The notes below the pieces were generated by a model that saw only the letters and a list, made by a program, of their open reading frames with translations, searched no databases and was not told the DNA's origin. Positions 22,214 through 64,000 of a stretch of 64,000 bases of DNA are shown in pieces. How positions within the stretch are numbered: position 1 is the stretch's first letter; each line of letters starts with the position of its first letter. This stretch comes from Verrucomicrobiota bacterium. Lineage in GTDB: Bacteria; Verrucomicrobiota; Verrucomicrobiia; Limisphaerales; UBA8199. The position numbers and the translations under genes were made by a program. Location: positions 4,171-68,170 of the forward strand of contig PSRM01000108.1 of assembly GCA_003176045.1 (NCBI GenBank), given 5' to 3'.

Positions 22214-22245
22214 AGTTCAAGGTTCGAGGTTCAAGGTTCAAGGTT
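22129..22245. repeat. Inverted pair of 7-nt arrays (ttgaacc)n / (ggttcaa)n
   Basis: Arms at 22129..22167 and 22209..22245 are complementary with about one mismatch over ~28 nt. The loop is ~41 nt. Confidence 0.9.
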
Positions 22246-22253
22246 TGTCTTTT

Positions 22254-26717: not shown

Positions 26718-27123
26718 CGCTGACCGCCACTTTAGCCTGGCCCAACAAAAAACCCTCATCCCCCGGCAAAACGGAGAATGAAGGCATTCAAGCGAATCCC
26801 AGCGCGCACTCGCGCGAGGGGCTGGCCTCATCCTTCTCTTTGACGGAGAAGTCGGTCGCGCTCGGAAGAGCGGACCGTGACGAGCACAACCAGACCGGTA
26901 TCCTGACTTGGGGCTTCGCCTCACTCCCGCCTTCCCGCTCCGTTTCTTCCATGAAGCGACGCAGCAGTGGCAGTGGGAGTTTGTAGCCCGTTACAGTGGC
27001 GCAACCGTCCTCGATTCTCACGAGGTTCCCTGACGCCTGGCTATGGTAAGAGATGGACCAAACGATCCATCGCTGTCAAAGAACGAGTGGAATCTACGAC
27101 GAAGCCAAGAACGAGACAACTGA

Positions 27124-32869: not shown

Positions 32870-33067
32870 TCGTTTTTTCTTTCGTCCCTTCGGGACTTAT
32901 GCCGTTCGACCGCTCTTACCCCAGCGTTGAAATTGAAACGCTGGGCTATTGTCTATAGTCCATACGAAGCTGTGAAATAATGGTAGCAGCCGAGGTAACG
33001 AGGCTCTGATCTTTTTGTAACCAGCTCGTGTGCAAGGATTTCAGAGCCTCGTTACCTCGGCTGCTAC
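32870..33067. repeat. Family B repeat followed by hairpin element C (27-nt arms gtagcagccgaggtaacgaggctctga)
   Basis: Arms at 32983-33009 and 33041-33067. An identical-arm copy lies at 55469..55553 with an inverted loop. Confidence 0.85.
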
Positions 33068-33145
33068 GAGGTTTTTGGATTTTTTCACACCATCTACGGG
33101 ACTGGGCCACGGGCGCTGCGTTGTTTTGGTGGTAGGTTGAAAAGA

Positions 33146-49245: not shown

Positions 49246-49365
49246 CGGTCCCGATTGGGATCGGGACCGCACTCCAAGACGCTGCCGCGATTTTCGTGCT
49301 TTCTCCAAAAAGCCGAAGGTTTTGGAGTGCGGCAGCCCTCTGCCGCTTTTGCTTCAAACGGCTTG
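49246..49365. repeat. Hairpin gcggtcccgat/atcgggaccgc followed by dispersed repeat family A (ggagtgcggcagc...ctgccgc)
   Basis: Lies between the convergent VOC and AlkB-like genes. A family A relative lies at 55300..55430. Confidence 0.7.
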
Positions 49366-49391: not shown

Positions 49392-50633
49392 TTAAACCGC
49401 TTCTGTGGCCACGGGTATCAGGGCCTTCAACCTGGGATGAATGACCCTGCGCCACCAGGGCGGCAGGAAGACCACGGCAATGGCCCAGAAATAGCCGACG
49501 GGGAGTTTGGGAGCTTCCGGTTCGGTGGCCAGCAAGTAATAAGGCTTCACCGCCAGGTGATGGTAGGAGTGATGGCCCACCCGGAAGCTTACGTAGCTCG
49601 AGAAGAAATGATACGTATCCCATGAGTGTTCGGCCGCCGCTTTCTCGTATTCCCCATCTCTTTGCTGCCGCATCAGACCGTAGTGCTGGATGTAGTTGAC
49701 CGACTCGAGGACGATGTGGGAACCAAGGACCTGCGCCAGATAGAATAAAAGCCCCGCGATGCCAAAGAAAAAATAGAGACCGGCCAACATCGCAAGCTGA
49801 ACCATCGCGTAGAGGATCATCTTGTTGCGCAAAACGCGCAAACTACTGGCGCGGTCTGACCCGGTCAGATGCTTCGATTCGATTTCCCAGCATCGAATTG
49901 CGCTGCCGGGGATCGTGCGGAAAATGTACGAGTAAATGCTCTCATTGAGCCATGCTGTGTTTTCGTCGTGGTCGGTGCTCGTGTGAACGTGATGGCTGCG
50001 GACATGAATCAGCTTGTAGTGGGGATAACACAAGAAACAGGTAACGATCCGCTGCAACACCTGGTCAATTCTGGTTTTTCCGTGCAACAGCTCGTGCGCC
50101 GCGGCAAAGCCGATTCCACCCAGCAAGCTGCATGAGCCAATCAGCATGGCTGTTTCCACGGCTGTGAATCGTTCTATCGTCATTGCCAGGTACAGCACAA
50201 ATCCCATGTAAAGGAGCGCATAAAGACGGGGGTTCCAATTCAGCAAAGAAATCTCCGCCCGGGGGAGGTCGGCTTTCTCAAAATGCGCCGTGTCTTGCCA
50301 ACCGGTGATCAAATCCAGCAGCGGCACAACCACCTGCAGGAATACTGGTATTATCAACAGCCAATAGCCGCCGCGATGAATTCCCAGTGCAAACATTGGA
50401 AACAACAAAAGGGGAAACAGGCAAAAAGCCACATGCCAGAATTTGCCCAATCTGGCGGCGTGGTCCGCTGCGTTTGATCGCACAGGCTTGACCGCGACGT
50501 TTTGCTCCAGCGACAAGTTAATTTGGGTATTCATGGGAACTATATATGAAAACCAAAGCGGCCGGTCAACGGTAGAAGCGACAGACGATAATAAGCTGGG
50601 TAATGGCAAGACACGGCTGTCGGGCTTATCCAA
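49392..50633 (-). CDS. AlkB-like integral-membrane alkane-1-monooxygenase / fatty-acid-desaturase family protein
   Basis: His boxes AHELLHGK, HVRSHHVHTSTDHDENTA and VGHHSYHH, plus NYIQHYGL. Multiple TM helices. The start may instead be ATG 50534. Confidence 0.75.
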   Translation of the reverse strand: MDKPDSRVLPLPSLLSSVASTVDRPLWFSYIVPMNTQINLSLEQNVAVKPVRSNAADHAARLGKFWHVAFCLFPLLLFPMFALGIHRGGYWLLIIPVFLQVVVPLLDLITGWQDTAHFEKADLPRAEISLLNWNPRLYALLYMGFVLYLAMTIERFTAVETAMLIGSCSLLGGIGFAAAHELLHGKTRIDQVLQRIVTCFLCYPHYKLIHVRSHHVHTSTDHDENTAWLNESIYSYIFRTIPGSAIRCWEIESKHLTGSDRASSLRVLRNKMILYAMVQLAMLAGLYFFFGIAGLLFYLAQVLGSHIVLESVNYIQHYGLMRQQRDGEYEKAAAEHSWDTYHFFSSYVSFRVGHHSYHHLAVKPYYLLATEPEAPKLPVGYFWAIAVVFLPPWWRRVIHPRLKALIPVATEAV

Positions 50634-50664
50634 CCGCGGTTAATCACACCCGCCTGCCGCGTCA

Positions 50665-50800
50665 GCCGAATCCTGCTCTTTCTTTTTGTTGCATTGCGGT
50701 GCATCCTGTTGTTTTGCGCGGACCAGCCTGCCCCAGTCTTCGGCCGGGTAAGCGATGGCATCCGCGCTCCTTAGACAATGCCAGAGTTTCTTTCGATTGG
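50665..50800 (+). repeat. Left copy of a ~136-bp imperfect direct repeat bounding the island
   Basis: Hand alignment with 62923..63058 gives about 21 mismatches plus 2 single-nt indels (~83% identity). Similarity ends abruptly on both sides. Confidence 0.85.
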
Positions 50801-50864
50801 TTTATGAATCGGCAGCGAGGCAGCGCGAACACAACCTCCGAGCGAACACGACGCACTTCTTAGT

Positions 50865-51371
50865 ATGGGAGCTACAGGCTGGAATTATTTTGTGCCTTAC
50901 GAGGCAAACGTTGAAGCTGCTCTGCAGAAGCTGAGGGCGGACGTATTCAAAAGTGGCAAATACGGCCAGGCGCAGGCCTTGCCACCAGAGCTCTTGGCCA
51001 GCCTGCCACCGGACGCCAGGCAGGCCTGGGAGAACCTGCGCGAACTGGAGGCGCAGCGGCTTGGCGGGCCAGCGAGAAAATTCGGCACCATTGATGAGCT
51101 TTTGGAAGCGGCCGCGGAAGACGGGACCCACTCGATTCTGGACATTCAATGCACAGCCTCCGAGCCGGATTTCGGAGTCGCATGGCCGGCACCGGACGAG
51201 GTAGTGCGGCGAGTGTACGGAACTGAGCGCCCCAGCCGTGCCCAGATCGAAGCTCAGCAGGGAAACATTTCTGAAGCATTGGAATTGGAGAGATGGCAGG
51301 CAGTGTACGTGCTGGTGTATGATCAGGGAAAACCAGCCGAGATTTATTTTGAGGGAGTATCTGGTGACTAA
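50865..51371 (+). CDS. Hypothetical cytoplasmic protein (168 aa)
   Basis: MGATGWNYFVPYEANVEAAL...GTHSILDIQ...YFEGVSGD. No signal peptide. No family recognised. Confidence 0.55.
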   Translation: MGATGWNYFVPYEANVEAALQKLRADVFKSGKYGQAQALPPELLASLPPDARQAWENLRELEAQRLGGPARKFGTIDELLEAAAEDGTHSILDIQCTASEPDFGVAWPAPDEVVRRVYGTERPSRAQIEAQQGNISEALELERWQAVYVLVYDQGKPAEIYFEGVSGD

Positions 51372-52422
51372 GTCTCATAACACTTGCGGGGTGCTGTTCA
51401 CCTTCACTGCCCTTCTCTGCTTCTACCCGGCCTGCTTTTCTACCGACGCGCCAACCAGCGGCAGGACAACCAATCAGCTCGGCGAAAGGCTCATTTTGCT
51501 GAAATCTGGCGAATCGAATAAATCCGGGCTGGTTTCGTATGGTCTTTATTGTGTAGTGAGCGGCTCTCGCGCTGCCTCCAATGCTCCACCCGGAGGCGAT
51601 CTGGTGCTCGTAATGCGAAACAACGGAGCCAAGTGGATCGACCTGGACCATGTCACAGTCGAGGATTTCAGCCTGCTGGATGCACAGGGCAAGCAGATGA
51701 AGCTCTATTTGTGGAGTTCACCGCGTGGCATGGCCTACGGAGACTCTGACGTGTTTCACTTGATCGTGCATCACTCTACAGATTCCCCGCAGCCTTGGAT
51801 ATTGCGCTTCAAATCCAAGCCCAAAGCTTTTGTGCCAGTGGATCTTTCAATTACAGGCATTGAGCCTCGGAAGTCTGGGAGCACCGCCACACTTGATGCG
51901 GACAGTTTGGGCACGCTTCTGAATTCAGCTAAGCCATGGCCTGGCATGGGCACTAACTACCCACGGTCTAGCTGGAGCCAACTGGTCCGCGTCGCCGAGA
52001 TTATTCAACACAGTCCTCCTGCTGCAGTTGAGAAGGTGCTGCACGAGTATCAGTTTAAAGATGGTGACGAGGAAGTAGATCCGCGACGGTTGATGGAACA
52101 ACTCGATCGGGACAGCAAACTCTTCCTTCTTATGCGGATTATTTTTAATTTGCCTGAGGCAGCGCCCGAAAAAAAAGAAAATCGGTTTGTCTCTGATGGT
52201 TGGATGTCGCGATGGAATAAGTCAGGCCAAGGAACTGAGCCTAGGAACACAATTAACCTCGCTTGGCCGATCACCTGGCAAGCTGGAAACCCGAGACTCC
52301 TTACCGGTTCCAGCGGTTATCAGGGTCAACGCTACGACGCGGCCGCGGAGTATGCCTTCTACCAGCAGAGATTTAGTTTCCGTGATCTTTCTGAATTTAA
52401 GGAGGAAGCGAAAAGTAAGTGA
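51364..52422 (+). CDS. Hypothetical exported protein (start taken as GTG 51364)
   Basis: In-frame GTG overlaps the upstream stop by 8 nt and is followed by the signal-like segment TKSHNTCGVLFTFTALLCFYPACFS. Confidence 0.5.
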   Translation: MTKSHNTCGVLFTFTALLCFYPACFSTDAPTSGRTTNQLGERLILLKSGESNKSGLVSYGLYCVVSGSRAASNAPPGGDLVLVMRNNGAKWIDLDHVTVEDFSLLDAQGKQMKLYLWSSPRGMAYGDSDVFHLIVHHSTDSPQPWILRFKSKPKAFVPVDLSITGIEPRKSGSTATLDADSLGTLLNSAKPWPGMGTNYPRSSWSQLVRVAEIIQHSPPAAVEKVLHEYQFKDGDEEVDPRRLMEQLDRDSKLFLLMRIIFNLPEAAPEKKENRFVSDGWMSRWNKSGQGTEPRNTINLAWPITWQAGNPRLLTGSSGYQGQRYDAAAEYAFYQQRFSFRDLSEFKEEAKSK

Positions 52423-52507
52423 GCGCGAGAGGCCGAATATCGTTATTGCATTACGCCGCTCGCTTCAGCGGCTGTGGCTGAGCTTAGACCAAACTGACCT
52501 GCTCCTT

Positions 52508-53686
52508 ATGAAGACGGTTGTCTTTGCGTCAGTTTTCGCAGTTTTGGAGTCGTGCGCTCCTGCTGAGTCTGTTCACCAGTTGTTCGCAAAAGGCCCGGAC
52601 GCGGTCACATTGGAGTTCGTTCAAACGAACCTTGCTCCTGTGGACCAGCAGGATGACTACAAATGCACCACGCTCCATTACGCGGCACGATACGGAAGGA
52701 TTGAGACTGCGAAATGGCTCATTGCCCATGAAGCTGACGTGAATACCGTTTCATACAATCAGTTTACGCCGATGCACATGGTAAGCGACGCCAAGCTGGC
52801 GCAGCTTCTGATTAAGGCTGGCGCAGACCTTGGAAAGAAGGACGCCTGGGGCAAGACGCCCCTGCAGAACGCTGCCGAAGAGCGTCGCACCAATGTATGC
52901 GAGGCAATTCTCGCCTCAGGGTTTCCGATTGACCTGTCCTCTGCCTTGAGGCTCGAAAAGCGCGACTTGGCGAAGAAGATGATTAGAGACAACCCGAAAA
53001 TGGTGAAGATCGTCGAGGTGGGTTCCGATCTTTGGAACGACACCTCACCCTTGGGTGTCGCGGCAACGCAGGGCGATCAGGAGTTGGTTCGGTTGCTGCT
53101 GAAAGCAGGCGCTCCGGTGAATGCCGTGACAGATAGACCAACCACGGGGGGTATGACGGCTCTTTGCAACGCAGTTTGGGCAGGACATTACGAGGTCGCC
53201 AAGATCTTATGCGAGGCTGGGGCGGAATGCAACATGACCGGTGGAAAGTTTTATCCCCGGTTGCTGGATTATGCGCTGAGACACTCAGACAGGAAGACGG
53301 TGAGCTTATTGGTTAAATATGGAGCGACCCCAGGCATCAAAGGACGCCATGCCGGGGCAGAGTCACGAACCTGGGCCTTTAATTCTCCAATCGGGCGCAT
53401 CGGCGTCAACGAAACCGTCCACTGGACGGATGCCGCAGGTCAGGAGATTGGCTTGTGGGAAAGTGACCGAGAAGACAAGCCGACTGATAAGCGGCGCTGC
53501 CAAATAAAAGTCTTGCTCGGCGCTAGTAGGCCTTTCTCAATACCGCTGTCGCTTGCGGGCGTTGCGGGCGTTGCCGCCGCTGGGACAGCCCTGCTCTGCA
53601 TTGGACTCCTTATGAGTTTGCGCGTATTTCGGCACCGAACACAGAACCCGCGATCGCTCCGGCACCTTGCATCGCCTCCTGGCTGA
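52508..53686 (+). CDS. Ankyrin-repeat protein with N-terminal signal peptide and C-terminal TM anchor
   Basis: ATG 52508 (MKTVVFASVFAVLESCAPA). ANK repeats (TTLHYAARYGRIETAKWLIAHEADVN, FTPMHMV..AQLLIKAGADL, GKTPLQNAA, MTALCNAVWAGHYEVAKILCEAGAE). TM segment LAGVAGVAAAGTALLCIGLLMSL. Confidence 0.8.
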   Translation: MKTVVFASVFAVLESCAPAESVHQLFAKGPDAVTLEFVQTNLAPVDQQDDYKCTTLHYAARYGRIETAKWLIAHEADVNTVSYNQFTPMHMVSDAKLAQLLIKAGADLGKKDAWGKTPLQNAAEERRTNVCEAILASGFPIDLSSALRLEKRDLAKKMIRDNPKMVKIVEVGSDLWNDTSPLGVAATQGDQELVRLLLKAGAPVNAVTDRPTTGGMTALCNAVWAGHYEVAKILCEAGAECNMTGGKFYPRLLDYALRHSDRKTVSLLVKYGATPGIKGRHAGAESRTWAFNSPIGRIGVNETVHWTDAAGQEIGLWESDREDKPTDKRRCQIKVLLGASRPFSIPLSLAGVAGVAAAGTALLCIGLLMSLRVFRHRTQNPRSLRHLASPPG

Positions 53687-53702
53687 GGGCATCATTACCT
53701 TT

Positions 53703-54113
53703 ATGCGCCGCTCTGTTGTCATCCTGATCGCGTGGGCAATGGGTTGGTTGGTTTATATGATTGCGATGGTGATGACGGTATATGATGGAGTTCTCTCGCT
53801 CTTGTTTCAGCCAATTATGGCGGCCTTCTTCAGCGCGGCGTTTGTGGGAATTGCGCTCCTCATTGGACTAATTCTGCGTATCCCAGCAATTAGCAGGGCC
53901 TGGCGTTCGAGTCGCTTGATAGCCGTTGGGCTTGCCGCGCTGAGCGTTTTCCTAATGCTTTTTGGCTCCTCCATGGGTTTGACTCAAACTCTGACCGACT
54001 ACAGAACGGGCAGTCATTTCGTAAGCTTGCATTGGGCTGTTGCATTTGGGTCCTATTTCGTTCTGCTGTTCGCGATTGCAAACTTTCCGCTTCGGAAAGC
54101 AGGTGCCCCCTAA
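53703..54113 (+). CDS. Hypothetical 4-TM membrane protein
   Basis: MRRSVVILIAWAMGWLVYMIAMVM... followed by further helices. ATG 53667 is an alternative start. Confidence 0.5.
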   Translation: MRRSVVILIAWAMGWLVYMIAMVMTVYDGVLSLLFQPIMAAFFSAAFVGIALLIGLILRIPAISRAWRSSRLIAVGLAALSVFLMLFGSSMGLTQTLTDYRTGSHFVSLHWAVAFGSYFVLLFAIANFPLRKAGAP

Positions 54114-54304
54114 TGAAACCAAAGCCGGAGCCGGAACCGAGCAAACCGCCGCCGCGACCACCATGTGGTCCGAAGGTGGCCACTGGCTTTGGCGACGATG
54201 ACCCGGACCCGAGGAGCAAACTGAAGAAGGAGAGCGTTCGCATCAACTTGCCTCCGAAACCTTCCCCGGCAGTAACGATCAAGTTCCCGCCGACGAAGAC
54301 ATGA
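54113..54304 (+). CDS. Small Pro/Lys-rich protein (63 aa)
   Basis: TAATG stop/start overlap with the preceding gene. MKPKPEPEPSKPPPRPPCGPK...KKESVRINLPPKPSPAVTIKFPPTKT. Confidence 0.4.
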   Translation: MKPKPEPEPSKPPPRPPCGPKVATGFGDDDPDPRSKLKKESVRINLPPKPSPAVTIKFPPTKT

Positions 54305-54311
54305 TCTTGCT

Positions 54312-54887
54312 CTATATGCACTCCACGACACTTCGGTATGCGTAAGGAAAGAAGAGCAGTCCTGCCATGAAGAAGCTCAATGGTTCGTCGGGAAACAGCG
54401 AACCGGAATGGACTACGTCTGTAAAACACAGAAATGATGCAATGGTGAATCCAATTGTGACAACCACCCCAACTCCTCTGTTTTCCGTCAATGGACCGAC
54501 CGGCGAGCCTGTTACGGAAAACAGCCAACATGCGAAAAGGAACGTAGCCCCGGAAAAAACTACTCCCTGCGCGAACGTCAGTTCGAAAAAGTATGCGAGC
54601 AGGGCGCCGAGAAAAGCAGCCCCTGCCAAAAAGCTCGGGACAACCCAACTGAACTTCGAACGAGCCAACATTGCTCCAAAAATTCCAATCACGTAACCAA
54701 GCCATGTGCCCACTACAATCACGCCTGCAAAGATTAGCAGTGCATTGATGGGCTCATTCGTACCCTTGAGCTGCTCGGACACATTCTGAATACCGTCGCA
54801 GATAGGCGTTGCGAAAAGGACGAGCAGCATGACGCCGACCCCTGCGCCTATAGACGCGCCGATATAGCCTGGACGCTGTTGGATCAC
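54312..54887 (-). CDS. Hypothetical multi-pass membrane protein (only minus-strand gene of the island)
   Basis: Five to six hydrophobic helices, e.g. GASIGAGVGVMLLVLFATPI and ALLIFAGVIVVGTWLGYVIGIFGAML. Confidence 0.55.
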   Translation of the reverse strand: MIQQRPGYIGASIGAGVGVMLLVLFATPICDGIQNVSEQLKGTNEPINALLIFAGVIVVGTWLGYVIGIFGAMLARSKFSWVVPSFLAGAAFLGALLAYFFELTFAQGVVFSGATFLFACWLFSVTGSPVGPLTENRGVGVVVTIGFTIASFLCFTDVVHSGSLFPDEPLSFFMAGLLFFPYAYRSVVECI

Positions 54888-55014
54888 GGAAGTGGTTTAA
54901 GAGTTCAACAAAATCCGCAAATGATTCTGGTTCGTGTTCATAATGTATTTGGACAGGGTTTACGAAAGAACGTCACTCGAAGGCTGGGCAGTAACCCATC
55001 TTGCACGCATTTTC

Positions 55015-55553
55015 CAGCCCAGTAGGGCGACAGATAATAGCCCAGCGTTTCAACGCTGGGGACGACCTCGCCCGAAGTCAGGCAAGTCCCGTCAGGGACG
55101 ACATATCTCTGCCGTCCCTGACGGGACTTGTCGCACTCGAAGCCCCGTACCCACCGATGAATCGGTGGGCTATTCTCTGTCGCCCTGGCGGGCTAAATCG
55201 AAAATGCGTGTAAGGTGCAGAGTCCTCTGGCGCTTTGGGTCGTCTGGGGGGCAGGCAGGAACTTTCGGAACGGGAGGTGATGCGCACGGTTAAGGGCAAA
55301 AAGCCAAAGCGGCAGAGGACAGCCGCACTCCAAAAGCTTCGCCAGTGCGGGCGGCAACGAAAACGCGGAGCGTCTTGGAGTGCGCCAGTCCTCTTGACAT
55401 GTCGCCGCACTCCAAAGCGGCTTGCGTTCCGCCACGAATGAGAACGTGTGAAGAAATCCCAAACCAATGTAGCAGCCGAGGTAACGAGGCTCTGAAATCC
55501 TTGCGGACAAGCAGGTTAAAGAAAATTAGAGCCTCGTTACCTCGGCTGCTACA
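55015..55553. repeat. Cluster of three dispersed repeat families (B 55015-55195, A ~55300-55430, hairpin C 55469-55553)
   Basis: Words shared with 25186-25375 and 32870-32970 (B), 49270-49365 (A) and 32983-33067 (C). Confidence 0.8.
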
Positions 55554-55659
55554 ATTCTCTCACACCTTCTGACCCATTACCTCACCGACCAATTTGTGCG
55601 TGGAATGTCGCACTGGCTGTGTTACTCTTGGTTCCGGTTCAATTAAGGGCACCGCCAGT

Positions 55660-56238
55660 ATGCCTATGGAAACCACGATCGGACAAACGGTCCTCCGTCT
55701 CGTCACCGGCGATATTGCGGAGCAGGATACGGACGCGGTCGTCACGGCGGCTCATTGGCGGCTGAACAAAGGCGCCGGAACCGATGGTACTATTCATACC
55801 AAAGGTGGTCCTCAAATCTACGAGGAGTGCCGCCGCATTGGCTCCTGTCCAATCGGAGGCGCTGTGATAACGACTGGCGGAAACCTCAAGGCCCGGTTTG
55901 TCATCCATGCCGTGGGGCCGGTTTGGCGCGGCGGTGACGAAGAAGAACCCGAATTGCTCGCAAGCGCCTATCGAAGGAGCCTGGAGGTCGCGGTGGAAAA
56001 CAACTTGCGCAGCATTTCGATCCCGTCCATTTCAACGGGTGCGTTTGGCTATCCGTTGAAACTGGCCGCGCCGATTGCATTGCAGACCATAGTTGATTTC
56101 TTACGAACAGCTCACCACGGCCTAAGCGAAGTGAGGATGGTTCTCTATCAGCGGGAGGACGACAGGGCTTATCCGCTTTTCAAGGCGGCGTTGGAACAAA
56201 TACTGGCCGAGAAACCAAGTAACACGGATGAGAGTTGA
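55660..56238 (+). CDS. Macro domain protein (YmdB/MacroD-like ADP-ribose-binding/hydrolase fold)
   Basis: ATG 55660. LVTGDIAEQDTDAVVTAAHWRLNKGAGTDGTIH, VIHAVGPVWRGG and IPSISTGAFGYP align closely with the E. coli YmdB pattern as I recall it. Confidence 0.85.
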   Translation: MPMETTIGQTVLRLVTGDIAEQDTDAVVTAAHWRLNKGAGTDGTIHTKGGPQIYEECRRIGSCPIGGAVITTGGNLKARFVIHAVGPVWRGGDEEEPELLASAYRRSLEVAVENNLRSISIPSISTGAFGYPLKLAAPIALQTIVDFLRTAHHGLSEVRMVLYQREDDRAYPLFKAALEQILAEKPSNTDES

Positions 56239-56296
56239 GAGTTCAGCTTGCAAACGAGAACCAGTGGGTGGACGTGGCTCAGCTTCGGGTCGCTGG

Positions 56297-56728
56297 ATGC
56301 TCTGGTGCCTCACGTTGTTTCTGAGCTGGCTGGTTGTTGGCATCCCCGGTTGTGCTCGGCCTGGCGGACCTGGTGCTCGGCCACAGGAGTTTGCGGAGTG
56401 GGCTCAAAAGTTCAAAGACAAAGCAGGCCGCGATAGACGTGCAGAGGGTGAGAAGATTCAGAGTCTTCTGCCGCACTGTCCGAAGACTTGGGAGAAGGAC
56501 ATAGGCACAGGCATATTGATGGCCTTTGACTATACACAGCCGTCATACAAGCTTACCAAACCAGAATTGTTTCGCGTGTTGGGTCAGCCCGATGGTTCCT
56601 ACAACGACAGCGTTTACTTCCTGCTCGATCACGACACCAACAATATGCTTTGGGAGATCTCAGTTGATTTTCATGATGATTACGTGGTTAGCTCGATCAT
56701 CTTTGGGGTTCCTCAAAAGGACAGATGA
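56297..56728 (+). CDS. Putative lipoprotein
   Basis: ATG 56297. MLWCLTLFLSWLVVGIPGC lipobox. LTKPELFRVLGQPD resembles the SmpA/OmlA-like motif. Confidence 0.55.
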   Translation: MLWCLTLFLSWLVVGIPGCARPGGPGARPQEFAEWAQKFKDKAGRDRRAEGEKIQSLLPHCPKTWEKDIGTGILMAFDYTQPSYKLTKPELFRVLGQPDGSYNDSVYFLLDHDTNNMLWEISVDFHDDYVVSSIIFGVPQKDR

Positions 56729-56847
56729 TCTTACCATCCCGTCTGACACCGCGCTGGAGTCGACGGCCACTGCGCCATTAAATTCGGGTTGCGCCTTGAG
56801 ATTTGAGGGACCAAATTGCAAACGAGAGTTCTACCCGTAGGCGGCAA

Positions 56848-57303
56848 ATGCGCTCATTGCGATTCATACTGGTTGCAGTTGTGGTAATGGCTTTTATTCT
56901 CGGGCTTTGCTGGCTCCTGCCGATAATGTTTGAGTCTCACTACATTCGACTGCAGCACAAAAGCCCCAAATATTATTCGAATCTTGCCGCGGCATGCGAT
57001 TCTATTCTGGCCAAGCATCCCTCAGGCACAAACAAGGTGAGTTGGATTCCTGTCACGGACCCATCACTGCCGAAGGCTGTCAGAGACTTGCATCCTCTCA
57101 AACTTCAGGTTAATCCTCAGCGAGTCTGGATGCTTTTGGACAGCGACAGCCGTGCTGGAATCGGTTTGGAGTGGCAGCCCAAATGGGACGACACGAATGT
57201 CTGGAAGCTGGATATTCTTGGGGAGAGTCTGGAAACAGTACTCTATTCGGTCAGGCGGAGTACGCCTGGTAACACAGTGCTGGAGGCGACCGGAACAAAG
57301 TAG
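56848..57303 (+). CDS. Hypothetical N-terminally anchored protein
   Basis: ATG 56848. MRSLRFILVAVVVMAFILGLCWLL. Confidence 0.5.
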   Translation: MRSLRFILVAVVVMAFILGLCWLLPIMFESHYIRLQHKSPKYYSNLAAACDSILAKHPSGTNKVSWIPVTDPSLPKAVRDLHPLKLQVNPQRVWMLLDSDSRAGIGLEWQPKWDDTNVWKLDILGESLETVLYSVRRSTPGNTVLEATGTK

Positions 57304-57406
57304 AAACGACACCATGAAATGAACCCCTTATGCAGGAATACGGGGTGCGCTTTCTCTTCGATTTGGAGGCCGGTGGTGCCGCGTCGCTAACAATCGAGGT
57401 TCGACA

Positions 57407-57847
57407 ATGAAAACCGCCATCCTATCACTTTGTGCCTTCACGGTGCTGCAAGCATGCGCGCATGCTGGGATTGAGACCGATATGCCATCAACAAATCGGG
57501 TAATTCTGAAATCGGGAGATTGGAAGCCTTCCGAGACTGAAACGCAAAAGGCTCTTGCGGCCGTCGGAACCTTCCTCGTTGAGCCAAACTTAAAGCACCA
57601 GAACGAGATCGCGAAGATACTCGGGAATCTAAAGAATTACCGGGTCCAGTTCGTCGGCGTCACCAGGGGAGGGAGGAAGTTCATCTGGTGCAACTTCTTT
57701 CCCGCCCGAGGCAACGGTGAGGACGACTTTCCGTACTGGAAGCGCCAGAAGGTCGAAGTAATGGACGGTGGTTTCTGGTTCTGGCACATTGATTTTGATC
57801 CAAACACCGGGAAGTGCATGAATTTTGCCTCCAATGGTTACGCATAA
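57407..57847 (+). CDS. Hypothetical exported protein
   Basis: Signal peptide MKTAILSLCAFTVLQACAHA. Confidence 0.55.
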   Translation: MKTAILSLCAFTVLQACAHAGIETDMPSTNRVILKSGDWKPSETETQKALAAVGTFLVEPNLKHQNEIAKILGNLKNYRVQFVGVTRGGRKFIWCNFFPARGNGEDDFPYWKRQKVEVMDGGFWFWHIDFDPNTGKCMNFASNGYA

Positions 57848-57861
57848 CTTCTGAACGGCTT

Positions 57862-58179
57862 ATGAAATTCCCTGTTTCGCTCGCTTGCGCCCTTTCCGCG
57901 ATTCTTTTGGCCGGCTGTGCGGGACGCAAACAGTTTCACCACCAAGAGTCCCTCCGTCGTGATGCGAACTGGCCGAAAATCCGAGCCGCAGCCGAACTGG
58001 AGGTCGCGCGCCGTGAGGGAAACACCCGCTGGTCGCATGCCGCATACTTCGCCCCGCACGAGCACACGAACGAAGTTTGGTATGTTGTAGCCTCAGCCGC
58101 TTATCCAACATACGGCGACAGGATCGATATTCTCGCTGGAGACACCGGCGAGATCTTGTCCTACTCCCCCCCGCTATGA
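57862..58179 (+). CDS. Putative small lipoprotein
   Basis: ATG 57862. MKFPVSLACALSAILLAGC lipobox. Confidence 0.55.
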   Translation: MKFPVSLACALSAILLAGCAGRKQFHHQESLRRDANWPKIRAAAELEVARREGNTRWSHAAYFAPHEHTNEVWYVVASAAYPTYGDRIDILAGDTGEILSYSPPL

Positions 58180-58200
58180 TTCTCATCCTAGATAGAACAT

Positions 58201-58794
58201 ATGTTACGACTTGTTCTCAAGTTGTTAGTGATGTTCTCCCTGGCAGCTATCAACGTCGGATGCGCTAGTCATGATCCGGTTTTACGCATCGGCGGCCAAA
58301 TCTATAAGATTGACCCGCAGGAGACCAGGGCGAGTGATCCGGCCCTGCAGCTAACCAATCAAATCAAGGCGGAGCAGCCAAGACCAGGCCTTGCCCCAAA
58401 TTATACAAGGGCTGACTTGACCAACAATTCGGTCCCTATACTCACAGAAAGAGGTCCTGTTCTCGATGCCCCGTTGTTCAAGACCTACGACAAGAAGCTC
58501 GTTGATGCCATTCTGCTCCACTGGTACAATCTTCTGGACGAGGACCCAAGGAGTTGGCAAAGGCGGTCAGGCGAAGTGGTCGTTGAGTTCCGTCTGCACG
58601 CGAATGGAGAAGTGTCCGATCTCGGAGTTACTCACAACACTTCGGATGCACTTATTGACGAGGCTGAAAACGCAGCCCTTACTTGTCTGAAAGCCGTCCA
58701 AGAGTCCGCCCCTTTCGCGCCTTTACCGCCGGAAATGCGGGTGCTCGTCGGAAACGTCCGCAGGATCCAAATTACTTTTAAGTATGAGCCCTAA
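58201..58794 (+). CDS. Lipoprotein with TonB-C-terminal-like domain
   Basis: MLRLVLKLLVMFSLAAINVGC lipobox. C-terminus GEVVVEFRLHANGEVSDLGV..SDALIDEAENAALTCLKAVQESAPFAPLP. Confidence 0.6.
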   Translation: MLRLVLKLLVMFSLAAINVGCASHDPVLRIGGQIYKIDPQETRASDPALQLTNQIKAEQPRPGLAPNYTRADLTNNSVPILTERGPVLDAPLFKTYDKKLVDAILLHWYNLLDEDPRSWQRRSGEVVVEFRLHANGEVSDLGVTHNTSDALIDEAENAALTCLKAVQESAPFAPLPPEMRVLVGNVRRIQITFKYEP

Positions 58795-58795
58795 A

Positions 58796-59212
58796 ATGGT
58801 CGCTAACACGATGCCTCCGCCTCGGGTGCGAGCCAGCCGTTCTGCCTGTAGCGCGTTTGTTGCTCAACATACGGTTACTGTCCTTCTCGCGATTGCTTCA
58901 TGCGTTCGCGTGGGAGCGGAGGAGCGGAAATTCGTCGAGCAATTCAAAATAAGGGCCACGGTGCAGGATGTGACAAAATTGCGAGAATTCACGGGCTCGG
59001 TTATCCAAACGCACTTCGATCCGCGCTATGTTATCACTCTACGCATCGCTTCGGTCACACCTCCGCTGTTTAGTCTTACGAATGAGCTTCGCCATTCACA
59101 GCCCGGCGCTGCTATTCAGGGGAGAGACGCCGCAGGGAAAGACCTTGGATTTCGTAGTGTCGCGAGAGTCGCAGGCAGGAAGAGTACGTTTTTTCGGGTT
59201 GCAAGTAGATAG
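58796..59212 (+). CDS. Putative lipoprotein N-terminal part (possibly one frameshifted gene with 59082..59918)
   Basis: VTVLLAIASC lipobox. The sequence becomes Arg/Gly-rich and non-protein-like after ~59085, where a second frame opens. Confidence 0.35.
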   Translation: MVANTMPPPRVRASRSACSAFVAQHTVTVLLAIASCVRVGAEERKFVEQFKIRATVQDVTKLREFTGSVIQTHFDPRYVITLRIASVTPPLFSLTNELRHSQPGAAIQGRDAAGKDLGFRSVARVAGRKSTFFRVASR

Positions 59213-59918
59213 CCAGGACGTCCAGCCAGGCGGTGCAGCAAACGGGAGCCTTCCAGTTCGCAATGGGATGTTTCAAGACGCCGCGAAGCTCAGGCAAGAT
59301 TGGAAACTGCGCGTCATGCAGGCGATCCAAGATGCGAAAAAGGCAGGATTAATTTCACCCAAAGGCGGTTTTTATCACAAAGAGGTAGTGATTTTGGACG
59401 CCCTCCTTGATCAAGCACCGGCCAACGTGGCCGAGGATGAGTTCCGAAGAATCTGTGCAAACCCAGTGCGAGATAGGTGGGACTCAGAAGATGAGTTGGA
59501 CAAGAGTTACGACCACGTCCTTATGGTAGCTTTCTTCTATCGCAGTAGCGAACGCAAGGACCGACAGCGCCTCACAACGCTATTGTGTCATCACTGCCCT
59601 CAGTATCTCGGTTATGCCGCTTCTGAATTTTACCTTGTCTCCACGTGGCCGGAATCCATCGAGTGCTTCTTTGATTGCTACACTGCAGCGAAGTCGGCAG
59701 GAGTTCAGAAGAACGTAGTCTCGTGTCTTGGGCGTGCTTTCCCCGCTCTACGTGATCGTTTTCCGGCAGACCGCGAATTCGTGCAGGAAGCACGAAACTG
59801 GTATATGTCGAATCGGAGCAACCTCCAGATCAATTATAGGTATGTCCACGTAGCAGCACAGCCCCCACCAGAGCCAGGACTAGATGTGACGAACCTTTTC
59901 CTCTATAAGCCGAAATGA
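59082..59918 (+). CDS. Hypothetical protein (279 aa from ATG 59082)
   Basis: MSFAIHSPALLFRGETPQGKTLDFVV... is a long open frame with plausible composition. No family recognised. Confidence 0.5.
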   Translation: MSFAIHSPALLFRGETPQGKTLDFVVSRESQAGRVRFFGLQVDSQDVQPGGAANGSLPVRNGMFQDAAKLRQDWKLRVMQAIQDAKKAGLISPKGGFYHKEVVILDALLDQAPANVAEDEFRRICANPVRDRWDSEDELDKSYDHVLMVAFFYRSSERKDRQRLTTLLCHHCPQYLGYAASEFYLVSTWPESIECFFDCYTAAKSAGVQKNVVSCLGRAFPALRDRFPADREFVQEARNWYMSNRSNLQINYRYVHVAAQPPPEPGLDVTNLFLYKPK

Positions 59919-59933
59919 CTGTCATCATGGTGT

Positions 59934-60419
59934 ATGCGTATTACGGGTCCAAGTAACCCATTCCAGTCGCCGTTCAGGTTGAAAGTTTTGTTGGCTGTAG
60001 CCATATCCATGCTGCTTTTTCCAACCGCGGCCTTTGCCAAACGCGCTGCTCCCCATCCTGTTCCTCCTGTCATCTGGCACGGAATTGAGTACCGCGCTCC
60101 TCTGGATCACATGGGCCACGTTCAAGCTTTTGACCAGGCATCAGGCCGCCTGCTCTGGGACAGTACAGTTTACCACGTACTTATAGTTCCCTGGTGTGAG
60201 GAGGATGTTCAGTGGGTCTTTGTCTCATCCATGCAAATTCAGGATGGAAAGCTGTTGGTACGAAACGAAAAAGGGGAGAGTTTCGAGCTGGATCTGAAAA
60301 CCGGTCGGGTGGCAGGGCAAATTCCCTGGTTCGCTTTGGCGATCGGCGCTCTCGTGGCTGTGGTGGCTTTTATTGTTTGGATTCGCAAGGGGCAGCGAAT
60401 TGAAACTCCTTCGGCTTGA
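59934..60419 (+). CDS. Hypothetical exported protein with C-terminal TM anchor
   Basis: Signal LKVLLAVAISMLLFPTAAFA. TM segment IPWFALAIGALVAVVAFIVWI. Confidence 0.55.
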   Translation: MRITGPSNPFQSPFRLKVLLAVAISMLLFPTAAFAKRAAPHPVPPVIWHGIEYRAPLDHMGHVQAFDQASGRLLWDSTVYHVLIVPWCEEDVQWVFVSSMQIQDGKLLVRNEKGESFELDLKTGRVAGQIPWFALAIGALVAVVAFIVWIRKGQRIETPSA

Positions 60420-60526
60420 TTTGACTGATCCGGTTCCCGGAGCGTCTCATTCTTTATCGAATCTACCGAACGAACTGCCCGCCTCGGACGTATAACTATT
60501 GTGCGCGTGTTTTTTTGTGAGCGGGC

Positions 60527-61192
60527 ATGATGGGCAAGCTTAAAGAATCGCTCGCTGCGCTCTTTGCTGTTTCTGACGAGCAGGCGATGCGGCGGGTGCA
60601 GATGCACGACGACGAGCGGGCGTTTGCGCACCTGGTTAAAAAATGGCAAGGCCCGGTACGGCGCTTGTGCATTCGAATGTTGGGGGATGAACATCGGGGC
60701 GAAGATTTGGCCCAGGAGAGCTTTGCCCGCGTGTTTGCCCAGCGCAAGCATTACCGCCCGGATGGAAAGTTTGGGACCTGGCTTTGGCGGATTGCGTTGA
60801 ACCTCTGCTACGACGAGCTGCGTCGGCGGCAGCGGTGGAAGCAGGTGTCTTTGGACTCCACCGACAGCGAGACGCTCGGCCTGCTGGAAAGCTTCGCCGA
60901 GCCGCAGATCGCGCCGGACCAGGCCCTGGTGAACCAGGAGCGCGCGGAATTGGTGCGCCGCGCCCTTTTAAGTTTGCCGGAGATTTACCGGGCGGTGTTG
61001 GTGCTGCGGCACTATGAGAATTTGAAATTTCGCGAGATCGCCGCCGTGCTCGGTCTGCCCGAAGGCACCGTTAAGTCCAGGATGGCTGAGGCGCTGACGC
61101 AAATGAGCCAACTGCTCAAGCCAAAGGTGGCGGCGGAGCCGCCGGGGCCACAAAAGAATTCCAATCGAATGAAAGAGAGTCTGATCGTATGA
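60527..61192 (+). CDS. ECF sigma factor (RpoE-like)
   Basis: Region 2 (EDLAQESFARVFAQRKHY, FGTWLWRIALNLCYDELRRR) and region 4 (LPEIYRAVLVLRHYENLKFREIAAVLGLPEGTVKSRM). Confidence 0.88.
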   Translation: MMGKLKESLAALFAVSDEQAMRRVQMHDDERAFAHLVKKWQGPVRRLCIRMLGDEHRGEDLAQESFARVFAQRKHYRPDGKFGTWLWRIALNLCYDELRRRQRWKQVSLDSTDSETLGLLESFAEPQIAPDQALVNQERAELVRRALLSLPEIYRAVLVLRHYENLKFREIAAVLGLPEGTVKSRMAEALTQMSQLLKPKVAAEPPGPQKNSNRMKESLIV

Positions 61193-61827
61193 ATCATCCA
61201 ACCTCAGAGCAATTGATATCGTATTTTTACGATGAAGCCGGGCCCACAGAACGGGCCGAACTGAAAACGCACCTCCAAACATGCCAGCAGTGCGCCAGAA
61301 ACCTGAACGCCTGGCGCAGCGCCCGGACGGACTTGAACGCCTGGAAAATGATGCCTAAGCGCGCCGGCAGCGCCGCGCCGTTGCCGGTCCTGAGATGGGC
61401 GCTGGCCGGGGCCGCCATGTTGTTGTGCTTTGGCCTGGGAGGATTTGCTTTCTCATGGAACTCCCGAGCACTCCCCGCGGCCCTCCAGGCCCGATTGCGG
61501 ACGCAGATGCGCGCCGAAGCGCTGCAGGTCGCTCAAGCCGAGACGGAGCGGGCAAGGGACTCGATGGCCGCAGCCTGCGAGAAGCGCACGCGTGAGTTTG
61601 TGATGGCGTTCGCAAAGGAATCATACGCGCAGCAGCGAAAGGAAATCCGGGCTCTTTATGCGGCCCTGGACAAGATTGACTCGCAGAGGGCGGCCGATTA
61701 CGTGGCTCTGAAAAAGGAGCTCGACACGCTGGCCGTCAACGCAGATGCGGAATTGCGATCAGCCGAGAACGGCCTGATCGAACTGGCGACTTTTACCCAA
61801 ACCCCTGCTGTTTCACCGCAGGAATAA
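61189..61827 (+). CDS. Anti-sigma factor (zf-HC2 type, single TM)
   Basis: ATGA overlap with the sigma gene. HLQTCQQCARNLNAW motif. TM segment WALAGAAMLLCFGLGGFAF. Confidence 0.75.
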   Translation: MNHPTSEQLISYFYDEAGPTERAELKTHLQTCQQCARNLNAWRSARTDLNAWKMMPKRAGSAAPLPVLRWALAGAAMLLCFGLGGFAFSWNSRALPAALQARLRTQMRAEALQVAQAETERARDSMAAACEKRTREFVMAFAKESYAQQRKEIRALYAALDKIDSQRAADYVALKKELDTLAVNADAELRSAENGLIELATFTQTPAVSPQE

Positions 61828-61848
61828 ACAATCAATCCATTAACACTT

Positions 61849-62859
61849 ATGAAATCATTGTATTCGTCCATTTTAGCGGGCGCCCTGGTCGCGGCCTCGG
61901 CGCAGTATTCATCGCACGGTCAGGATTCCCCTTCCTCTGGGGCATTGCGATCAGAGCCTTTAGCAAATGAACCTTTGGCCCAACAGCAGAATAATGTCGA
62001 GAAGCTCATTGACGAACTCAAACAGTCAGACTCAAAGGACGCGCAACGCCTCCTGGGCTGGCTCGAGGTCCCGCGCCGCTCGCCATCGGAAGAAAGCGTC
62101 CTGGCCGTCCGCTTCGAATCGATTGATCCCCGTGAGGGCGCGAACCTGGAGGCCGACCTGGCGGTGATGTCGCGCCTGCTGCGCAATGTCCTGAAAGAGA
62201 AGTTTGGAAGCGCGCATAGCTACGGAAAGGTCCTGGGTGTTGACGTTGCCTATGTGCCCGGGGCGCAACCCATACGGACCATGTACCTGGAAGGTTATGG
62301 GGCCTTGTTCCTTTTGAACGTTGGTTTTCCACTTCACGCCGCGCCGGCCGAGCCCGCGGACGCAAAACAAAAACGGAAGACGGATTCCGCCTGGGAGCAG
62401 GCTACCCGGGACTACTATGGCGAACCTTCACCCGACAAACTTTCCAATACCTATGCGCAAGCTTATGACGAACAAAAGGTCAGTGCCCTGAAAGCCGCGT
62501 TGATCGAGGGGCTGAAGAGCGCCTCAAACATCCGCGGCTTAAACGCAAAGGATTCCGTCACCATCTGCGTCTCAGGCAGCGCAAGTATCAGCGCCGTTCC
62601 TGTGCCCCGTTTGCCCGGCCAGAATGCGTTCGAGCCCGGCGCCAGGCCCTCACAGAGCCCCGATGCGATCACGCAACGCAGTTTTCTGACCTTACGCGCG
62701 ACGAAGTCCGATATTGATGGCTTCGCGTCGGGCAAAATAAGTGCCGAGGAATTTTCCCGTACCGTCAAGCTCACGACCTACCTCGGGCCGGCTGGCCGAT
62801 GGTCCGCTCCCGGGGCTCCCTATACCACCATGGCCCCTGGGGCAACGATGGCCCCATGA
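61849..62859 (+). CDS. Hypothetical exported protein downstream of the sigma/anti-sigma pair
   Basis: Signal peptide MKSLYSSILAGALVAASAQ. No family recognised. Confidence 0.55.
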   Translation: MKSLYSSILAGALVAASAQYSSHGQDSPSSGALRSEPLANEPLAQQQNNVEKLIDELKQSDSKDAQRLLGWLEVPRRSPSEESVLAVRFESIDPREGANLEADLAVMSRLLRNVLKEKFGSAHSYGKVLGVDVAYVPGAQPIRTMYLEGYGALFLLNVGFPLHAAPAEPADAKQKRKTDSAWEQATRDYYGEPSPDKLSNTYAQAYDEQKVSALKAALIEGLKSASNIRGLNAKDSVTICVSGSASISAVPVPRLPGQNAFEPGARPSQSPDAITQRSFLTLRATKSDIDGFASGKISAEEFSRTVKLTTYLGPAGRWSAPGAPYTTMAPGATMAP

Positions 62860-62922
62860 GATTGCAGCGGAAATGATCCCATGAATTGTCGCAGCATAGC
62901 ATTGCCGGCGAACACCAAATCG

Positions 62923-63058
62923 GCCGAATCCTGTTCTTTCTTTTCGCTTCGTTCGCCTGCATCATGTTGGTTCGCGTGGACCAGCCAGCGCCCAGGCTTC
63001 GGCCCGGCAAGCGATGGCGTCCGCGCTCCTAGACGATGCCAGAATTTCTTTCGATTGG
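62923..63058 (+). repeat. Right copy of the ~136-bp direct repeat (contains promoter region, ATG and the first 8 codons of the GT2 gene)
   Basis: See 50665..50800. Confidence 0.85.
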
Positions 63059-64000
63059 GATCCCGACCCGGAACCGCGCAGGGTTTCTGCGCGAGACGCT
63101 CACGGCTTTCGAGCAACAGATTCGGCGCGATAAAATCGCACCGGAAATCGTCCGCATCCGGATCTCCGATAATTGTTCAACCGACCCCACCCCCGAGGTC
63201 GCGAAGGAGTTTGCGGCACGCCTGCCCAACCTGACCTACCTGCGTAATCCCGAAAACATCGGCGGGGACAGGAACTTCCTGCGCTGCATAAAGCTTGCGG
63301 AGGGCGAGTATTGCTGGGTCGTAGGCGATGACGACATCATCAATCCCCATGCCCTGGAGCACGTGCTCAACGCCTTACATACCGAAAAGCCGGGGCTGAT
63401 CATCGCTTTGGATACCAATTATCCCGCCAAACTGAAACGGCCAGCGCGCTTCGCAAGCTTTCGCGATCTAGCCGCCGAGTGCTCCCGGGTGAACCTGCAC
63501 CTATTGGCAGAGCACAGCCTTATCACCTCGAACATTTACCGCACCGAGGTTTTTGATACCGCGTTCTCCGAAGCTATGATGCACACCTTTTACGCGCACA
63601 TGTACGGCCTGGTTCATGGCCTGGCCAAACGCGGCGGTTCAGTTTATTTGCCCGATTCGCCGATCATCACCGTGCGCGAGCGCCGGGCTGCCGCCGTGGA
63701 CGGCGTGTGGCCCGACATCATCGAGAAAGCGTGGGTGGATTATTTAACGTGGATGAAGCGCGAACTGGACCTGCCGGAAATGCACCCCGAGCAGATTCTG
63801 GAGTATGCGCGGAGAGTGCTTTTGCGCAAAATCATGCGCAATCCCGCCAAATACATCTCCAACAACCTGCCGTTTTTGCTCCAAGCCAGTTCTTACAGAT
63901 GGTTCGCTCGCCGGGTTTGGTTTATGCTCCGTGGCATGCCGAACGGGAAAACGAACCCTGTTGGCGAGAGGTTTGGGGCCAGTCCAGGCGAAGAAAAGCG
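63036..64000 (+). CDS. Family 2 glycosyltransferase (3' end beyond the window)
   Basis: Own translation from ATG 63036: MPEFLSIGIPTRNRAGFLRETLTAFEQQ...ISDNCSTD...NIGGDRNFLRCIKLAEGEYCWVVGDDD. The frame is open to 64000. Confidence 0.8.
   Translation, partial: MPEFLSIGIPTRNRAGFLRETLTAFEQQIRRDKIAPEIVRIRISDNCSTDPTPEVAKEFAARLPNLTYLRNPENIGGDRNFLRCIKLAEGEYCWVVGDDDIINPHALEHVLNALHTEKPGLIIALDTNYPAKLKRPARFASFRDLAAECSRVNLHLLAEHSLITSNIYRTEVFDTAFSEAMMHTFYAHMYGLVHGLAKRGGSVYLPDSPIITVRERRAAAVDGVWPDIIEKAWVDYLTWMKRELDLPEMHPEQILEYARRVLLRKIMRNPAKYISNNLPFLLQASSYRWFARRVWFMLRGMPNGKTNPVGERFGASPGEEK

Follow-up and report, generated by a model that had tools for sequence, protein, structure and literature searches.

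A duplicated glycosyltransferase gene start brackets a mosaic 12-kb interval in a Verrucomicrobia genome

The 64,000-nucleotide stretch analyzed here (in the following "the window") is chromosomal DNA of a Verrucomicrobia metagenome-assembled genome (MAG), located on a 69-kb contig that carries an alkB-like gene (C5B50_09360) and a gene for a glycosyltransferase of family 2 (GT2; C5B50_09445). Core genes are found in the window, namely a che cluster, tmk, cysS, genes for M24 and S49 peptidases and kinases, together with a cobalamin riboswitch, and giant RCC1/Ig and beta-helix-like repeat proteins are encoded as well. The alkB-like gene is the left chromosomal neighbour of the interval of interest, with its transcription directed away from it, and GT2 follows on the right. 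The DNA in between is bracketed by two direct copies of a 139-nt sequence, which have sharp edges and share 84% identity, as 23 of 140 alignment columns differ, including two indels of 1 nt (Table 1). An earlier note on this DNA, made by eye, had already described imperfect direct repeats of 136 nt with sharp edges at 50665-50800 and 62923-63058, and the slightly longer unit given here was obtained in agreement by a MAFFT alignment and a repeat finder.

The right copy is the 5' region of GT2, as had been proposed before, and extends into the coding sequence. The gene starts with the ATG at 63036, opens with MPEFLSIGIPTRNRAGFL, has its Pfam domain from residue 6 onward, and ends with a stop codon 4 nt beyond the window end. 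The left copy lies 128 nt from the start codon of the alkB-like gene; this start is confirmed, as the NCBI MAG protein is 100% identical. Between the end of the left copy and the first enclosed gene, g01, there are 64 nt. The copy contains an ATG 244 nt from the divergent alkB-like gene, which opens a reading frame of only 9 codons that ends 58 nt before g01. The first eight residues of this stub, MPEFLSIG, are those of the live GT2 N-terminus, with one synonymous difference in 23 nt, and then the frame runs into a stop. As GT2 orthologues with 53-83% identity keep (E)FLSIG or ELLSI at their N-termini, the left copy derives from a GT2 start and not from a generic intergenic repeat. The repeat is a true duplication of the promoter-proximal region of GT2 together with codons 1-8, in which the right copy serves the live gene and the left copy, which was kept beside alkB, represents a GT2 start that was displaced and truncated. 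The stub at 50778 can be either a relic or a 9-codon upstream open reading frame (ORF).

Conservation is uneven along the unit, with 92%, 63%, 84% and 93% identity in four successive segments, and the longest identical run, TTTCTTTCGATTGG, comprises the last 14 nt on the gene-internal side of the unit. The earlier note had considered that the repeat might turn out to be a promoter module present at many loci, but a sensitive blastn search with either copy gave no third copy, not even a partial one, in the window. In metagenome contigs of the JGI no other copies were found either; 10 matches to a conserved 21-mer were all unrelated EAMASAL coding sequence within genes of aminotransferases and glycosyltransferases of family 4 (GT4).

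Table 1. Position of the repeat copies, the flanking genes and the enclosed features in the window (aa, amino acids; TM, transmembrane; ECF, extracytoplasmic function)
Feature	Position	Strand	Support or remark
alkB-like gene, fatty-acid desaturase/alkane hydroxylase family, 380 aa, C5B50_09360	49392..50534	-	Pfam FA_desaturase 5.6e-24
Left repeat copy, in the 330-bp alkB/g01 intergenic region	50662..50800	+	repeat finder, alignment
Truncated GT2 start, ATG CCA GAG TTT CTT TCG ATT GGT TTA TGA (MPEFLSIGL, stop)	50778..50807	+	sequence read
g01, 168 aa, cytoplasmic, widespread uncharacterized family	50865..51371	+	
g02, about 350 aa, N-terminal hydrophobic segment, no family match	51370..52422	+	start uncertain (ORF opens 51238)
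g03, ankyrin-repeat protein, C-terminal TM helix	52187..53686	+	Pfam Ank_2 1.2e-29
g04, 148-aa polytopic membrane protein	53667..54113	+	
g05, 191-aa polytopic membrane protein, sole minus-strand gene	54312..54887	-	
Non-coding spacer packed with dispersed repeats	54888..55665	.	
g06, macro-domain protein (ADP-ribose binding/hydrolase family)	55666..56238	+	Pfam Macro 1.3e-37; NCBIfam
g07-g14, seven small genes, all with low GC3	56297..60419	+	
g15, ECF sigma factor, native-like composition	60527..61192	+	Pfam Sigma70_r2 3.8e-17, r4_2 6.8e-16
g16, putative anti-sigma factor	61189..61827	+	weak zf-HC2 match, one TM helix
g17, 336-aa secreted protein, no family match, native-like composition	61849..62859	+	
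Right repeat copy, 116 nt upstream of GT2 and its first 23 coding bases (codons 1-8)	62920..63058	+	
GT2-family glycosyltransferase, 322 aa, C5B50_09445	63036..64000	+	Pfam Glycos_transf_2 9.9e-22

About 16 genes lie between the copies, which is also the number implied by the NCBI locus tags C5B50_09360 to C5B50_09445 and is close to the roughly 17 mostly plus-strand ORFs counted earlier; all but g05 are on the plus strand. Their starts were refined with gene calls from an independent Logan assembly, and in case of g03 an internal signal-like segment places the probable start near 52508. The genes form at least three transcription units, g01-g04 (+), g05 (-) and, behind a repeat-rich spacer of 780 bp, g06-g17 (+). 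An N-terminal hydrophobic segment, a lipobox or TM helices occur in about 10 of the 16 products, so that the earlier statement that most products carry such features holds for this share, and g01, g06, g13 and g15 are cytoplasmic. Within the g07-g14 block, which also includes g08, g07 and g10 are lipoproteins, g11 is a TonB_C-like lipoprotein, g09 is secreted, g13 has 278 aa, and g14 has a signal peptide, a C-terminal TM helix and a weak PQQ_2 match (PQQ/BamB-like). The ankyrin, macro-domain and ECF sigma proteins that had been named from the sequence were recovered by Pfam and NCBIfam. Of the predicted ECF/anti-sigma pair, the sigma factor is well founded, while the assignment of g16 as anti-sigma factor rests on sub-threshold zf-HC2 and NCBIfam matches and on context: the zf-HC2 score of 21.7 bits is marginal in relation to the cut-off of 22.2, the TM helix spans residues 65-83, and the g16 start overlaps the g15 stop by 4 nt.

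For g02, g04, g05, g07-g10, g13 and g17, neither Pfam, with matches up to E<=5 considered, nor NCBIfam or PADLOC gave a match, and sequence searches of the PDB with g02, g09, g13 and g17 gave no match. A single-sequence AlphaFold model of g09 was unusable, with a predicted local distance difference test score (pLDDT) of 43. Neither the enclosed genes nor GT2 have paralogues elsewhere in the window. A 31-nt motif, TGAGAGTTGAGAGTTCAGCTTGCAAACGAGA, occurs with 81% identity at 56229-56259 and 56797-56827, about 70-90 nt upstream of g07 and g08, and it may be a shared regulatory element or chance. A paralogy of g07 and g08 was considered and rejected; the genes are unrelated despite the common upstream motif, which stands in different reading frames. 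This single pair is the only intergenic repeat found between enclosed genes.

The base composition of the interval is atypical in part. The G+C (GC) content is 54.9% between the repeats and 57.7% elsewhere in the window, and at 1-kb scale it ranges from 0.52 to 0.59 inside and from 0.53 to 0.63 outside, which does not agree with the 42-57% inside versus 65-67% outside that had been estimated from spot counts. As the 12.1-kb stretch nevertheless lies below all 155 segments of equal size taken elsewhere (their minimum being 56.7%), the lower GC content is real, albeit small. It is confined to 50.9-60.4 kb, where the GC content is 53.9% (50865-60419, compared with a minimum of 56.5% in equal-sized segments elsewhere), and the last 2.5 kb before the right repeat have 58.8%. 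The codon usage gives the same picture. The GC content at third codon positions (GC3) is 0.589 +/- 0.032 in the 13 genes g01-g14, compared with 0.663 +/- 0.044 in 32 other genes (Mann-Whitney p=2e-5, and p=1e-3 when compared with short genes only), and these 13 genes fit the codon usage of the window worse (p=1e-5). In case of g15, g16 and g17, GC3 is 0.74, 0.70 and 0.67, respectively, and the codon fit is normal. The sliding GC and codon-usage check that the earlier note had suggested therefore marks g01-g14 as atypical and leaves the ECF/anti-sigma/g17 block native-like, so that the proposed low-GC island shrinks to a 9.6-kb block that starts at the left repeat.

The enclosed DNA is thus a mosaic and not one system. 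It consists of the 9.6-kb atypical block g01-g14 and a native-looking operon of an ECF sigma factor, an anti-sigma factor and a secreted protein. The g01-g14 block codes for lineage-specific, mostly exported or membrane proteins and is interrupted by dispersed repeats of the genome itself, which fill the spacer between g05 and g06. From left to right, this spacer has two inverted Acido-Lenti-1 arms around a hairpin (54998-55212), then a repeat of 41 nt (55301-55341), and finally a palindrome whose stem measures 26 bp (55463-55553), and these repeats recur at 25.2, 33.0 and 49.3 kb in the window.

Concerning the two junctions, the right one (g17/repeat/GT2) is also found in an independent assembly, Logan L045, where 1 of 8474 nt is mismatched. 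A misjoin induced by the repeat is unlikely, because the copies are only 84% identical, and together with the reproduced right junction this makes a misassembly at the repeat improbable. The same contig extends the sequence on the 3' side of GT2, where L045 positions 8479-9427 (equivalent to window positions 64005-64953) contain a 253-bp AT-richer spacer and then the gene of a functionally uncharacterized secreted protein. No sugar-nucleotide genes like those beside a GT2 orthologue of 65% identity are present there, and GT2 thus is a solitary gene in this genome.

All relatives in the collections searched are distant. The closest ones have 71% amino acid identity for the alkB-like protein and 83% for GT2, the latter being encoded on a contig of only 1.8 kb from JGI sample 3300047160 (P0002). 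The nearest sequenced alkB relatives belong to Prosthecobacter-like Verrucomicrobiaceae with at most 68-71% amino acid identity, and 39 alkB loci from GTDB representatives (at most 68%, up to 73% in short partial matches) have no other gene in common with the window. Seven GT2 loci show no synteny with the window either: one orthologue of 65% identity follows a second GT2 gene in a polysaccharide cluster and adjoins YfhO (L040-44), another of 65% adjoins a divergent gene for a 936-aa membrane protein (L056), one of 53% follows GH98 and bestrophin-like genes (L057), and the contexts of the homologues P0005, P0004 and P0007 all differ. The upstream DNA of the orthologues with 53-65% identity does not align to the repeat.

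A dead GT2 start beside alkB is the remnant that is expected if DNA was interposed at the 5' end of GT2 and this end was regenerated. We therefore tend to the view that an old integration or recombination event took place at the GT2 5' end, the product of which is now fixed and immobile, and we would give this tentative reading a probability of roughly 45%. In such an event, alkB and the body of GT2 would have been separated by about 12.1 kb, and an intact GT2 5' end would have been regenerated. The crossover may have occurred inside the GT2 5' region, either site-specifically or as a Campbell-type homologous exchange, if a homologous 5' segment was present on the incoming DNA, in the way in which prophage e14 carries the icd 3' end. 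The 14-nt identical run TTTCTTTCGATTGG would be the best candidate for the crossover core. The recombinase may since have been lost, or it may have acted in trans, and the left copy may still fire as promoter for g01-g04.

Several observations weigh against such an acquisition, which the earlier note had favoured as well. The dead GT2 start and the 13 atypical genes agree with it, but the right compositional boundary misses the repeat: the atypical composition extends to about 60.45 kb, the right copy begins 2.5 kb further on, at 62.92 kb, and g15-g17 look native. Dispersed repeats of the spacer are also found elsewhere in the window, and the interval therefore is old or native. No empty site was seen among the 39 alkB and 7 GT2 loci, all of them from distant relatives, and exact-protein look-ups with g01, g03 and alkB found no second assembly that covers the left junction. 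As had been noted before for the interval, a tRNA gene is absent, which holds for the 64 kb as a whole, and no integrase or transposase gene, and likewise no phage or conjugation gene, was found in the interval or elsewhere in the window by Pfam and NCBIfam searches of ORFs of >=100 aa on both strands from 50.6 to 63.1 kb and of the rest of the window. A recombinase pseudogene was not detectable in the interval. DNA similarity to plasmids or phages was not found in the collections searched, with only weak g01 matches on Streptomyces megaplasmids. The longest identical run of 14 nt is also too short for a present-day RecA exchange. The interval is no transposon or insertion sequence by the usual features, as there is no transposase and the ends are direct 139-nt repeats, not inverted ones.

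A precedent for a duplicated gene end of which one copy is a truncated, distant fragment is given by icd and icdC around e14 (PMC13626634). Like in case of e14 (and phage 21) in the icd gene of E. coli, the DNA at the locus described here is bracketed by an imperfect direct duplication of the end of a host gene, and as with icdC the live gene runs into one copy, while the other copy is a truncated and non-functional fragment at the far end. In contrast to e14, it is the 5' end with promoter and 8 codons that is duplicated and not the 3' end, no integrase, excisionase or phage gene was found, the copies are more diverged (84%), and part of the enclosed DNA has native composition. The duplicated piece of e14 is on the order of 150 nt and thus similar in size to the 139-nt repeat. 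There is also a likeness to degenerate, "grounded" islands, which share the flanking direct repeats, the atypical composition, the cargo of unknown, presumably accessory genes and the lack of functional mobility genes, but the interval is not beside a tRNA gene and has no detectable recombinase pseudogene. The module of g15-g17 resembles known operons of ECF sigma and zf-HC2 anti-sigma factors in having regions 2 and 4 in g15, a zinc-finger-like N-terminus and a TM helix in g16, the 4-nt overlap and the downstream gene for the secreted g17. It is ordinary in this respect and takes up no more than the rightmost 2.3 kb of the interval.

What alternatives to an integration event exist? The enclosed genes could be native and the duplication could have arisen in situ without any insertion, either by copying of the 139-nt promoter/start piece to a position 12 kb upstream, or by deletion of the body of a second GT2 paralogue that once was located there. 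The low GC3 of g01-g14 would then not be a sign of foreign origin, but a property of weakly expressed, fast-evolving, lineage-specific genes of exported proteins. This would be in line with the absence of mobility genes, with a small composition shift of about 3-4 GC points that does not track the repeat boundaries, with the native look of the right end, and with the dispersed repeats that the region has in common with the rest of the genome; moreover, GT2 and alkB are found in variable contexts throughout the relatives, and local rearrangements are thus frequent in the lineage. On the other hand, at least two events, a dispersed duplication and a deletion that ended exactly at codon 8, would be needed in place of one integration, 13 consecutive genes with atypical codon usage begin within 65 nt of the left copy, and the lack of paralogues of the enclosed genes or GT2 in the window does not speak for it. 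We consider the in-situ origin doubtful, although it deserves to be kept in mind. It is unlikely that both copies function as promoter or leader modules, with a 9-codon upstream ORF in the left copy, and in this way subject the g01 operon and GT2 to joint control, possibly by the ECF sigma factor g15. Selection and not recency would in this case have kept the conserved blocks, for which the uneven conservation could be cited, as well as the end of the unit 64 nt before g01 with inclusion of the GT2 start, and the position of the ECF sigma/anti-sigma pair 1.1 kb upstream of the right copy. However, consensus scans predicted no sigma-70-like promoter or terminator in either copy, an ECF-type motif common to the repeat copies and the g15 upstream region was not recognized by eye, and neither the window nor the JGI 21-mer scan provided a third copy. 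One compensatory pair is found in a terminal helix, by which the start codon would be sequestered, but this single covariation is not significant (261/500 shuffles), and the folding energy of both copies is no better than that of shuffled sequences (z = -0.24 and -0.27). A conserved secondary structure is thus supported neither by thermodynamics nor by covariation, and as no Rfam family matches the repeat, a structured-RNA or leader nature was rejected.

A possible single system of envelope or immunity type had also been suggested for the interval, but no evidence for one coherent system of either kind was found among the enclosed genes, which belong to at least three transcription units. In its most specific form, the idea would be that of an orphan immunity array against interbacterial toxins, in which the small periplasmic or lipoprotein genes and the ankyrin and macro proteins are the members. 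A reversal of ADP-ribosylation would be conceivable for a macro domain, and some immunity proteins contain ankyrin repeats. The many small, unrelated genes on the same strand, with overlaps or short gaps and mostly exported products, and the skewed GC content are reminiscent of the AID/rAID-1 clusters of Bacteroidales, which likewise have skewed GC content and form arrays of up to 31 genes (10.1101/471110). Unlike these clusters, the interval shows no immunity-gene homology, no XerD-family recombinase and no integron-like intergenic repeats. In Pfam, with matches up to E<=5 considered, as well as in NCBIfam and PADLOC, the enclosed proteins gave no match to families of immunity or defence apart from the generic ankyrin matches of g03, there is no toxin or secretion-system gene nearby, and g01, g06, g13 and g15 are cytoplasmic, which makes an immunity array very unlikely. 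Even slightly less probable, and the most novel of the possibilities, is an integrase-free unit that enters and leaves the chromosome via its own GT2 promoter and first codons with a recombinase supplied in trans, the 139-nt unit doubling as a portable promoter for the cargo. To our knowledge, gene-end attachment sites replace 3' ends or the ends of tRNA genes. A replacement of gene starts at the 5' end would therefore, if true, be an unusual attachment-site architecture and the first such element described in Verrucomicrobia.

The locus is best read as a degenerate islet with a gene-end duplication and as such as a fairly ordinary scar of an old rearrangement and not as a new system. If the integration at the GT2 5' end is true, it is another segment of the flexible genome that was stitched in while the interrupted gene was kept alive by a duplicated end, here the 5' end, in a poorly sampled lineage of soil Verrucomicrobia. 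This opens no new mechanism and resolves no open question. The repeat is genuine and can be used as a marker for excision or deletion variants in reads, and the interval should not be annotated as a functional system.

The family of g01 is large, unannotated and structurally unmatched, and may merit a study of its own. It comprises 1055 representatives of 50% clusters at E<=1e-3 and 548 at 1e-10, with the near-invariant motifs MGASGWxYFVPYQ, GTHSILD, FGTxxPT and a C-terminal GxSGD. No match to g01 was found in Pfam, NCBIfam or PADLOC, and the family is absent from IMG/VR. An AlphaFold model based on 45 homologues has a pLDDT of 92.8, for which Foldseek gave no match in the PDB (best E=1.1) and a marginal one in BFVD (E=0.17), and g01 is therefore a candidate for a new domain family. 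In case of two homologues on short contigs, none of the few neighbouring ORFs there is g02-like.

The dispersed repeats of the spacer have counterparts in the window. A composite element with palindromic structure, about 190 nt long, has two copies (25170-25395 and 54998-55212), the outer arms of which are inverted matches to the Rfam family Acido-Lenti-1 (RF01687) around a central hairpin GTCCCGTCAGGGACG...CGTCCCTGACGGGAC; it looks like a dispersed repeat of the miniature inverted-repeat transposable element (MITE) or repetitive extragenic palindrome (REP) type. The Acido-Lenti-1 motif was described for Acidobacteria and Lentisphaerae (PMC2864571) and is here found in a Verrucomicrobia MAG. 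The near-perfect palindrome with the 26-bp stem (TGTAGCAGCCGAGGTAACGAGGCTCT...) at 55463-55553 has a related copy 22 kb away at 32966-33095. The independent short-read assembly breaks inside it, as contig L045 starts at window position 55527, and because the break occurs exactly there, a multi-copy element of the genome is suggested. A 41-nt inverted repeat pair of 90% identity (GCGGCAGAGG.CAGCCGCACTCCAAAAGC) connects the intergenic DNA downstream of alkB (49314-49354) with the spacer (55301-55341).

Elsewhere in the window, heptamer and octamer tandem repeats (CACGTTT/GAAACGT and TTGAACC-type) occur at 12439-12493, 25003-25063 and 22120-22255 and form inverted pairs at distant intergenic sites. 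An ORF of 2826 aa at 33296-41776 (-) has many diverged internal repeat units of about 50-70 nt at multiples of about 200 nt, and its predicted product is probably a beta-helix adhesin-like protein. The cobalamin riboswitch (26876-27055, -; 73 bits) is located upstream of minus-strand genes at 24.3-26.5 kb, one of which encodes a prepilin-type N-terminal methylation motif.

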